NCBI GenBank assembly: GCA_964016885.1
Contig: OZ024747.1
Location: 64,294,001-64,358,000, forward strand
DNA: 64,000 bases
Direction: 5' to 3'
From: Eledone cirrhosa
Taxonomy: Eukaryota
The notes under the pieces were generated by a model that saw only the letters and a program-made list of their open reading frames with translations, was not told the DNA's origin and ran no database searches. Below are positions 9,621 through 40,997 of the stretch, one piece after another. Both the position numbers and the translations under genes were made by a program. Position 1 is the stretch's first letter; every line of letters starts with the position of its first letter.

Positions 9621-9673
9621 CTGCTATATATATTTCGGTGACAGCCATCTTTGGCTGTAACCTCTTCAGGCAG
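9621..9673 (-). ncRNA. Minimal type-I hammerhead ribozyme, intact core
   Basis: Minus strand reads ctgc CTGAAGA ggttacagcc-aaagat-ggctgtcacc GAAA t-atat-a TA gcag. Stems I, II and III all pair, with an AUA cleavage triplet. Confidence 0.8.
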
Positions 9674-37328: not shown

Positions 37329-37690
37329 TGACAGCTGAGGATAAACAACTCAGATCTACCGGTCTATTTAGATAGGTTTCTCACATAAAACGTATATGTT
37401 ATGTTTGACGTTTCCATTCTGATACATTCAGCACAGAAAGTCTCTGTCAGTGTATAAATACTCTATTCTTAAACGGATTCACAAGAGAGTAAATTTAGCA
37501 TCTTGATCGATTCGTTTTTACATCAACATTTCAATCTTTTGTGGTTTTCAAACACTTTCTCTTGTTTTTAAATATACATTTATCAACCAATATGATGCAT
37601 GATATATATATATATATACATTATGAAGAGAGAAGAAACATTTAGATATAATTAGTAATAAAATGTATCATACCTAAACTGTTCCTAAAT

Positions 37691-37778
37691 TCCTCGACTA
37701 CGTAGTTTCGTGGCATAAACAAAAACAATATATCAAAGATATAGAGTCCTTGCGAGGTCTGCCGACTTATCAAGAGGA
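37691..37778 (-). ncRNA. Hammerhead ribozyme (inverted copy)
   Basis: Reverse complement of 38391-38478. Confidence 0.7.
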
Positions 37779-38390
37779 TACCTCATTTTACTAGTCTCAA
37801 GAACGCGTCTACACGACGTGAGAAAGAATCCCAACAGGCGGAGGGGGAGATAGTCACGCGATATAACGGTCGAGAAACAGAGCTAAGCCTCTTATAACCA
37901 CGAAGAATCATTTTATTACTAATTATATCTAAATGTTTCTTCTCTCTTCATAATGTATTTTTAACTCTGATACTGGTTCAGTCTAGTTCAAACTGAATTG
38001 GTCTGTCCCAGTCATTCATTGAGCAACATCGGTGAAGTTGGCACCCTTAACTCACAGTTGGGTGCGGATGCATTCATGTATGTATATATGTGTGTGTCCG
38101 CATGTATCTGTGTGTTTCTAAATATATTAATAACTCCCTCTGGTCGAGCAATCTTTGAAGTGTGGGGACAACTGGAAAGCTTCCATTACTCATACTTCTC
38201 GCCTTCTTCACTACCTCTTCTACGGCCTCGATATGAATACCCCCTCCGCCTCCGTGGTATTTTCTTCGTGGTTATAAGAGGCTTAGCTCTGTTTCTCGAC
38301 CGTTATATCGCGTGACTATCTCCCCCTCCGCCTGTTGGGATTCTTTCTCACGTCGTGTAGACGCGTTCTTGAGACTAGTAAAATGAGGTA

Positions 38391-38478
38391 TCCTCTTGAT
38401 AAGTCGGCAGACCTCGCAAGGACTCTATATCTTTGATATATTGTTTTTGTTTATGCCACGAAACTACGTAGTCGAGGA
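38391..38478 (+). ncRNA. Type-I hammerhead ribozyme, U3-A8 core, long stem II
   Basis: tcctc TTGATAA gtcggca...tgccac GAAAC tacgta GTC gagga. Stem I is tcctc/gagga, loop III is palindromic, and the cleavage site is GUC at 38473. Confidence 0.75.
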
Positions 38479-38985
38479 ATTTAGGAACAGTTTAGGTATG
38501 ATACATTTTATTACTAATTATATCTAAATGTTTCTTCTCTCTTCATAATGTATTTTTAACTCTGATACTGGTTCAGTCTAGTTCAAACTGAATTGGTCTG
38601 TCCCAGTCATTCATTGAGCAACATCGGTGAAGTTGGCACCCTTAACTCACAGTTGGGTGCGGATGCATTCATGTATGTATATATGTGTGTGTCCGCATGT
38701 ATCTGTGTGTTTCTAAATATATTAATAACTCCCTCTGGTCGAGCAATCTTTGAAGTGTGGGGACAACTGGAAAGCTTCCATTACTCATACTTCTCGCCTT
38801 CTTCACTACCTCTTCTACGGCCTCGATATGAATACCCCCTCCGCCTCCGTCGTATTTTCTTCGTGGTTATAAGAGGCTTAGCTCTGTTTCTCGACCGTTA
38901 TATCGCGTGACTATCTCCCCCTCCGCCTGTTGGGATTCTTTCTCACGTCGTGTAGACGCGTTCTTGAGACTAGTAAAATGAGGTA

Positions 38986-39073
38986 TCCTCTTGATAAGTC
39001 GGCAGACCTCGCAAGGACTCTATATCTTTGATATATTGTTTTTGTTTATGCCACGAAACTACGTAGTCGAGGA
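38986..39073 (+). ncRNA. Hammerhead ribozyme (second tandem copy)
   Basis: Identical to 38391-38478, offset by +595. Confidence 0.75.
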
Positions 39074-39411
39074 ATTTAGGAACAGTTTAGGTATGATACA
39101 TTTTATTACTAATTATATCTAAATGTTTCTTCTCTCTTCATAATGTATTTTTAACTCTGATACTGGTTCAGTCTAGTTCAAACTGAATTGGTCTGTCCCA
39201 GTCATTCATTGAGCAACATCGGTGAAGTTGGCACCCTTAACTCACAGTTGGGTGCGGATGCATTCATGTATGTATATATGTGTGTGTCCGCATGTATCTG
39301 TGTGTTTCTAAATATATTATATATATATATATATATATGTATGTATACGTATGTATGTACAGGTACATACATATATGTATACAGACGTACAGTAGTATGT
39401 ATATATACATG

Positions 39412-40735: not shown

Positions 40736-40810
<75 letters not shown>

Positions 40811-40840
40811 GAAAAACCACAGACCCTCCATCTCAACTCA

Positions 40841-40878
40841 CCTTTCGAAAAGCAGAAGAACTGCGAAACCGGTAAAGG
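40841..40878 (+). ncRNA. Degenerate minimal hammerhead
   Basis: cctt TCGAAAA gcag-aagaa-ctgc GAAA ccgg TA aagg (U3-A8 plus U4C). Confidence 0.55.
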
Positions 40879-40966
40879 AACCAAATAAATATATATATTT
40901 AAAAAAAAAAAAAAAAAAAAAAAAAATAAGACTCCAGTTGCATTTTCGATTTCATCTCTTTTTCTT

Positions 40967-40997
<31 letters not shown>

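Follow-up and report, generated by a model that had tools for sequence, protein, structure and literature searches.

A (TA)n-inserted, ORF-less hammerhead repeat of Eledone cirrhosa as a non-autonomous Penelope-type retrozyme whose copies point to reiterative use of one monomeric RNA

An array of 595-bp units at positions 37616-39319 of the 64,000-nt stretch of Eledone cirrhosa DNA analysed here (the window; contig OZ024747.1) belongs to a repeat family that, by its sequence, is ORF-less, young and inserted in (TA)n, with a predicted hammerhead in every unit. The family of this locus is almost certainly a non-autonomous Penelope-type retrozyme. As the best explanation of its copies we consider probable a (TA)n tandem retrozyme that depends on an RT-endonuclease supplied in trans by a Penelope-like (possibly Neptune) element and whose template is a single monomeric RNA, probably a circle and probably edited by ADAR. 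An earlier note on this DNA had read the array as a retrozyme copied from monomeric RNA by a Penelope-type RT acting in trans; the present data support that reading, and the sharing of variants among units backs reiterative copying of the monomer.

The insertion lies between a left (TA)n target tract (37602..37615) and a right one (39320..39340), and because it sits inside a (TA)n microsatellite any target-site duplication would be indistinguishable. Counting unit position 1 as the base after the predicted cut, an inverted arm on the minus strand (37616..37907; unit 384-595 and then 1-80) has its outer end at the +80 start site, and a forward arm on the plus strand (37909..39319) holds 2.37 head-to-tail 595-bp units (unit 31-595, 1-595 and 1-251) with its outer end at the +250 start site. 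The 292-bp inverted arm is 100% identical to 38262-38553 and to 38857-39148. Identity at lag 595 spans 37909 to about 39319 with a sole mismatch, G at 38256 against C at 38851, in agreement with the layout first described (an inverted segment of about 290 bp, then partial and full units, with TA on both sides) and with the one difference then spotted between units. A base private to this locus (unit 456) is present in both forward units and in the inverted arm. The predicted cut-to-cut monomer (38474..39068, plus strand) has 595 nt and 41.5% GC, and the 170-nt stretch at 39149..39319 (plus strand) is a 'tail' bounded by the inferred RT start sites +80 and +250 (compare PMC11167929). No RT or EN frame was found in the unit by an open-frame check, the longest stop-to-stop frame being 114 aa, as the earlier observation of no RT or endonuclease ORF had it.

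Type I hammerheads are predicted on the plus strand at 38384..38478 and 38979..39073, with cuts after C38473 and C39068, the same two GUC sites that had been singled out before. The former count of one hammerhead per full unit is right for both units and has to be enlarged by a third complete copy inside the inverted arm (37691..37785, minus strand, its span mapped from the forward copy), with C17 and the predicted cut at 37696. Type I is likewise retained, with a core that is the U3-A8 variant UUGAUAA and not CUGANGA; a U3-A8 core covariant is reported for Schistosoma Cercyon PLEs in the available part of PMC4209133. In hammerhead 1, stem I pairs 38391-38395 with 38474-38478 (UCCUC/GAGGA) and is followed by the core (38396-38402), a long bulged stem II, GAAA (38460-38463) and a stem III that is short and palindromic. 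A 6-bp pseudoknot is predicted between the stem II bulge and 38384-38389, on the 5′ side of stem I. Rfam at gathering thresholds gave 0 matches for the unit, and the hammerhead is called by its motif and by pair counts: in 31 natural copies from two families, 96% of cells are paired in the proposed structure versus 31-51% when it is slid. The core and stem III are near-invariant between these families, which are about 80% identical; two-sided changes occur in 2/34 pairs and most helices are simply invariant, so the support comes from conservation more than from covariation. As a circle the monomer folds at -173.5 kcal/mol (z = -6.7 versus 40 dinucleotide shuffles). RNAalifold and whole-monomer folds lack the active hammerhead and pair the 3′ strand of stem I with unit 67-71 instead, a predicted capture that could prevent a circle from being cut again or could mean poor cleavage.

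In the 3.0-Gb genome, exact matches to a 24-mer that bridges the cut number 7,444 and those to its reversed control 0, so the sequence is not a one-off of assembly or chance. The first 100 matches, grouped by hand into about 50 loci, extrapolate to about 3,700 loci, a total that, like the 24-mer count, includes a motif-sharing sister family about 80% identical. Searching the genome with the unit, as the earlier note had proposed, returned young head-to-tail arrays dispersed over many contigs, with units of 591-595 bp, top copies 97-99% identical and arrays of six or more units. The sister family (24 loci examined) consists of ORF-less tandem and inverted repeats of about 600 nt that end near +80 or +250. 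Against the possibility raised beforehand that the sequence exists only as the pLTR of an ORF-bearing Penelope, the 102 family-A and 24 family-B loci inspected (126 of about 3,700) gave no case of the unit continuing into an ORF, although a rare autonomous version may exist. Similar flanks among loci are other elements lying behind (TA)n at varying offsets. Copies are often inserted into (TA)n tails carried by other PLE fragments, as nests of several TA-targeting families (flanks of L031-L070 and L161-L200).

We compared the ends of 103 loci, namely 23 non-overlapping top matches (seven overlapping duplicates dropped), the first 40 by position on contig C1 and 40 chosen by their +80 end. Outer ends lie at about +80 or about +250 after the cut, and inner (5′) ends are variable. 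Permuted starts had been anticipated for such arrays; the first-copied ends are at two fixed sites instead, as in the 'tail' pattern of Penelope elements (PMC11167929). This PLE signature, a tail delimited by two internal start sites, has been shown in vitro for anole Poseidon, whose protein is a predicted dimer and extends both strands (PMC11167929), and the accessible text of PMC3846280 and PMC8557442 already records a tail on one inverted pLTR. Short TA microhomology to the target is seen at both start sites, and the copies have all the marks of a Penelope-like insertion: truncated 5′ ends, arms in tandem or inverted, and an optional tail delimited by two fixed starts. An apparent enrichment of 5′ ends at the cut was set aside as too weak, 7/10 cases being alignment artefacts and three being exact (L057, L184 and L192).

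Inverted pairs combine one +80 and one +250 end in 51/55 cases, and 0/55 use the same site twice. The four non-standard pairs are one of an older subfamily using +431, one with a broken arm and two from the sister family (one of them 81/241). A copy of the older subfamily with a third TA-like end, at unit +431, is located at L039:1174-1570. Single-arm insertions split 8 versus 10 between the two sites (40 position-ordered loci), so that independent site choice would give about half same-site pairs. The count of 636 ends at +250 covers one junction form only and is not comparable with the 2,544 ends counted at +80. Neither arm could be a segment of the other in 16/51 inverted pairs, or in 15 if L066, where a deletion alone is responsible, is left aside; both arms must have been RNA-templated there, and fold-back of the first cDNA is excluded for these pairs. 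What this family adds to the known tail is strict one-of-each site use and a tail length of 170 nt.

Arms of one locus have private variants in common and diverge by 0.46% on average (n = 26), versus 3.2% between loci (n = 865; first 63 loci). The variant set was drawn from the 80 of 102 loci with less than 2% divergence, 68 of them with columns covered at least twice; indel-prone columns were excluded, and five variants were reclassed as ancestral from 10 older loci, on which polarity rests. These 68 young loci carry 43 derived variants that are array-wide (31 private to one locus), 102 confined to a single unit (4 recur) and 4 that are partial. Of the columns represented both in an internal unit and in the terminal segment copied first, 32 have the variant in every copy, 18 are terminal-only, 7 internal-only and 13 other; each of the 7 internal-only variants occurs in a single copy and A>G is not among them, and this comparison returned no all-internal variant that occurs in at least two internal copies yet is missing from the terminal one. 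Cut-site junctions were scored at loci selected by other means than that motif; 71/75 match exactly, with 4 point changes and 0 indels. Array-wide private variants in multi-unit arrays imply that the same monomer-length molecule was copied repeatedly, and we hold such repeated copying of one template to be highly probable. That the template was a covalent circle, the simplest form of a monomer template, is fairly likely on this indirect genomic pattern.

Near-identical units are also found in sequencing runs of 10 organisms (13 runs, X1-X13, with at least 55% of words), where they may represent contamination, diet, related species or RNA; no RNA run was listed as a holder of the unit in this search. 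The four runs inspected are contigs of unrecorded kind, which cannot show ends, circles or editing. In X1 and X6 the unit forms a single closed contig of 620-621 nt at a depth of about 8, which we do not count as evidence of a circle because a tandem repeat present as trace DNA yields such a contig too. X7 has only G alleles at unit 14 and 107, and X2 has both alleles.

On the RNA strand, A>G accounts for 19/43 array-wide variants versus 7/102 single-unit ones (Fisher p = 4.5e-7), and it exceeds T>C per base in the array-wide class only (p = 0.0013). The genomic copies thus carry an ADAR-like footprint, and an ADAR origin of the excess appears reasonably likely. A non-ADAR cause of the A>G excess, for example polymerase bias, transcription-coupled mutation of the DNA of source loci, or selection in a U-rich RNA for pairing that tolerates G-U, seems to us rather doubtful. 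Structural selection alone is argued against by C>T, which also preserves pairing and is not enriched (5/43 array-wide versus 16/102 single-unit). Single-unit variants, which sample DNA mutation and RT error, have no A>G excess, and in L070 three private UA>UG changes lie clustered inside a 16-nt stretch of a single predicted hairpin. The 5′ neighbour of A>G sites is U in 11/19 cases versus 40/109 for all A's, and G in 1/19 versus 24/109 (raw counts), the same direction as the ADAR neighbour preference. In favour of a non-ADAR cause, this bias is modest, A/G columns are no more homoplastic than others (p = 0.32, so the editing-hotspot test is not significant), the paired fraction is only slightly raised at A>G sites (0.71 versus 0.64) and polarity comes from the 10 older loci.

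The retrozyme route that we favour would begin with transcription of an array and hammerhead cleavage, followed by ligation of the monomer of about 591-595 nt by a host ligase, as in other animal retrozymes; ADAR would then deaminate some A's of the structured RNA. By analogy with anole Poseidon, the enzyme, probably as a dimer, would nick both (TA)n strands and start reverse transcription internally at +80 and/or +250. The outcome shows in the genomic pattern: one start yields a 5′-truncated head-to-tail array, and two starts on the same RNA yield tail-out inverted arms, one per site. Each arm can be of any length, passing through the seamless junction, so that all units inherit the variants of the template. 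A bolder version, in which the element is a viroid-sized circular RNA replicon, a Neptune RT dimer double-primes one circle and ADAR editing, made permanent by reverse transcription in thousands of inherited DNA copies, is the main mutational engine, is advanced only tentatively.

The template could instead be linear, either a cut monomer or an uncleaved, terminally redundant 1.x-mer copied with intramolecular jumps, the hammerhead having little or no part. Hammerhead cleavage is indeed dispensable in vitro for anole Poseidon, which mainly uses uncleaved RNA as substrate (PMC11167929) and at whose cut site no RNA-seq reads terminated; internal initiation makes a fixed 3′ end unnecessary, and the three arms that begin exactly at the cut are a weak sign of linear 5′ ends. 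A redundant linear template, however, predicts internal-only changes at the RNA level, and the 7 such cases are the single-copy, non-A>G ones described above, whereas private A>G changes (L059, L070, L177 and L185) are in both terminal and internal segments. End-to-end jumping on a cut monomer should leave junction indels, of which the 75 junctions have none, and we regard a linear template as unlikely. Still less credible, and in our view very improbable, is satellite-like amplification with gene conversion after insertion of a solo pLTR, the inverted arms arising by self-priming cDNA fold-back (PMC3846280). Local amplification of this kind is proposed for PLE termini in the available part of a preprint (10.64898/2026.07.22.740005), and some junctions are near-palindromic (L023, L066 and L069). 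The arrays are nevertheless dispersed and young and end at fixed RT sites, partial variant sharing is rare (4 versus 43 array-wide) and the unit never continues into an ORF in the 126 loci; pure fold-back is rejected for the 15-16/51 pairs in which neither arm lies inside the other.

As for the enzyme, GIY-YIG candidates number more than 10,000 in the genome, and no extended homology between the unit and GIY-YIG elements was found among L071-L140. A young Neptune-type family (L102/L235) has a 400-aa ORF1 and an overlapping 775-aa frame, both open in 6/12 fetched copies; in the latter frame RVT_1 scores below cut-off (E 2e-6) and GIY-YIG above it, with a CX4CxxC linker. Its hammerhead is also U3-A8, and its ends are at +82 and +150, one each in 9/9 inverted copies, the first start site being +80 in the retrozyme versus +82 here. 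End motifs are alike in both (a pyrimidine run and UUAUA at site 1, UUUCUAAUAUA at site 2), with scores that are equalled or exceeded in 0-3.9% of null windows drawn from the body of the element and inflated by TA-richness. On these resemblances the family of L102/L235 is a candidate donor of the RT-endonuclease with roughly even prospects, one beside several other Neptune-like families in this genome. In all its intact copies ORF1 and the RT-EN ORF2, read in different frames, have about 90 nt in common (L235:2600-6066), which suggests a programmed frameshift. The window itself holds a solo Neptune 5′-region fragment (40809-40970) with a degenerate hammerhead, ending at +82 inside (TA)n, 1.5 kb from the array.

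A young, intact Hydra-clade family (L141-L157, e.g., L143:2735-5011) offers many 758-aa open frames with RW, DKT and CxCX5C motifs as in PMC8557442, and microsatellite-filled UTRs. It too is inserted in (TA)n, with ends at about +27 and +97, about 70 nt apart. Its canonical CUGAUGA hammerhead and its end motifs, which score lower except for one score of 16, make it the poorer partner. Adjoining a Hydra element at L137:300-1230 is another apparently ORF-less inverted/tandem repeat with a canonical CUGAUGA hammerhead and a palindromic stem III, probably another retrozyme family, and a relative of its motif occurs in L047. Hammerhead-like motifs of other families turned up in a simple scan of 1.1 Mb (L011, L037, L046, L106, L118, L159 and the minus strand of the window near 9,670).

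The origin of tandem and inverted PLE copies, and the role of hammerheads and circular RNA, are stated to be unresolved in the accessible portions of PMC8557442 and PMC11167929. Thousands of near-identical natural products allow models to be discriminated here, on the points of one RNA, two start sites and a monomer bottleneck. For reconstitution the family also provides a short RNA along with an intact candidate enzyme, and if the A>G excess reflects editing, it would be a clear case of RNA edits written back into a germ-line genome.

Among known systems, metazoan non-LTR retrozymes, as described in the available text of PMC7229834 and 10.64898/2026.07.22.740005, are likewise ORF-less tandems with a type I hammerhead per unit, GC below 45%, thousands of copies, a highly structured monomer and coexistence with PLEs. 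The unit had been thought longer than typical retrozymes, a view not borne out by published consensus lengths of 51-972 bp in the part of 10.64898/2026.07.22.740005 available. In that same part, 8/9 Xenopus retrozyme dimers did not cleave in vitro and 1/9 did. Inverted arms, a two-site tail, (TA)n targeting and a likely editing footprint set the present family apart from retrozymes as described, the word 'inverted' being absent from the accessible text of PMC7229834. There, circles are demonstrated for mussel, coral and axolotl retrozymes and their reverse transcription into tandem cDNA is only proposed; for the 595-bp family the position is the reverse.

EN+ PLEs (Neptune and Hydra clades, anole Poseidon PAc) share with this family (TA)n targets, truncated 5′ ends and arms in tandem or inverted, along with an optional tail whose two bounding internal start sites lie downstream of the hammerhead (PMC11167929 and the available part of PMC8557442). 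Unlike them the retrozyme family has no ORF, and its tail is 170 nt versus the 30-40 nt given for EN+ PLEs in those portions and about 70 nt in the Neptune and Hydra families of the same genome; its start sites have TA microhomology, whereas those of PAc, in an AC-rich loop, have no homology (PMC11167929). Chlamys MRC1 of Chlamydomonas is similarly a non-autonomous PLE with multicopy head-to-tail insertions in microsatellites, but Chlamys elements for the most part have no canonical hammerhead, insert in (C)n/(CA)n and have 3′ sequence in common with autonomous partners (accessible text of PMC8557442). No description of this repeat family or of its copy patterns was found in the main texts covered, a body of literature that excludes most subscription papers. 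On the features examined the class is a known one, the metazoan non-LTR retrozyme as a non-autonomous PLE, with predicted self-cleavage and a presumed circular form, and the new part is the mechanistic record in its copies: fixed ends, template-shared variants and an A>G excess.
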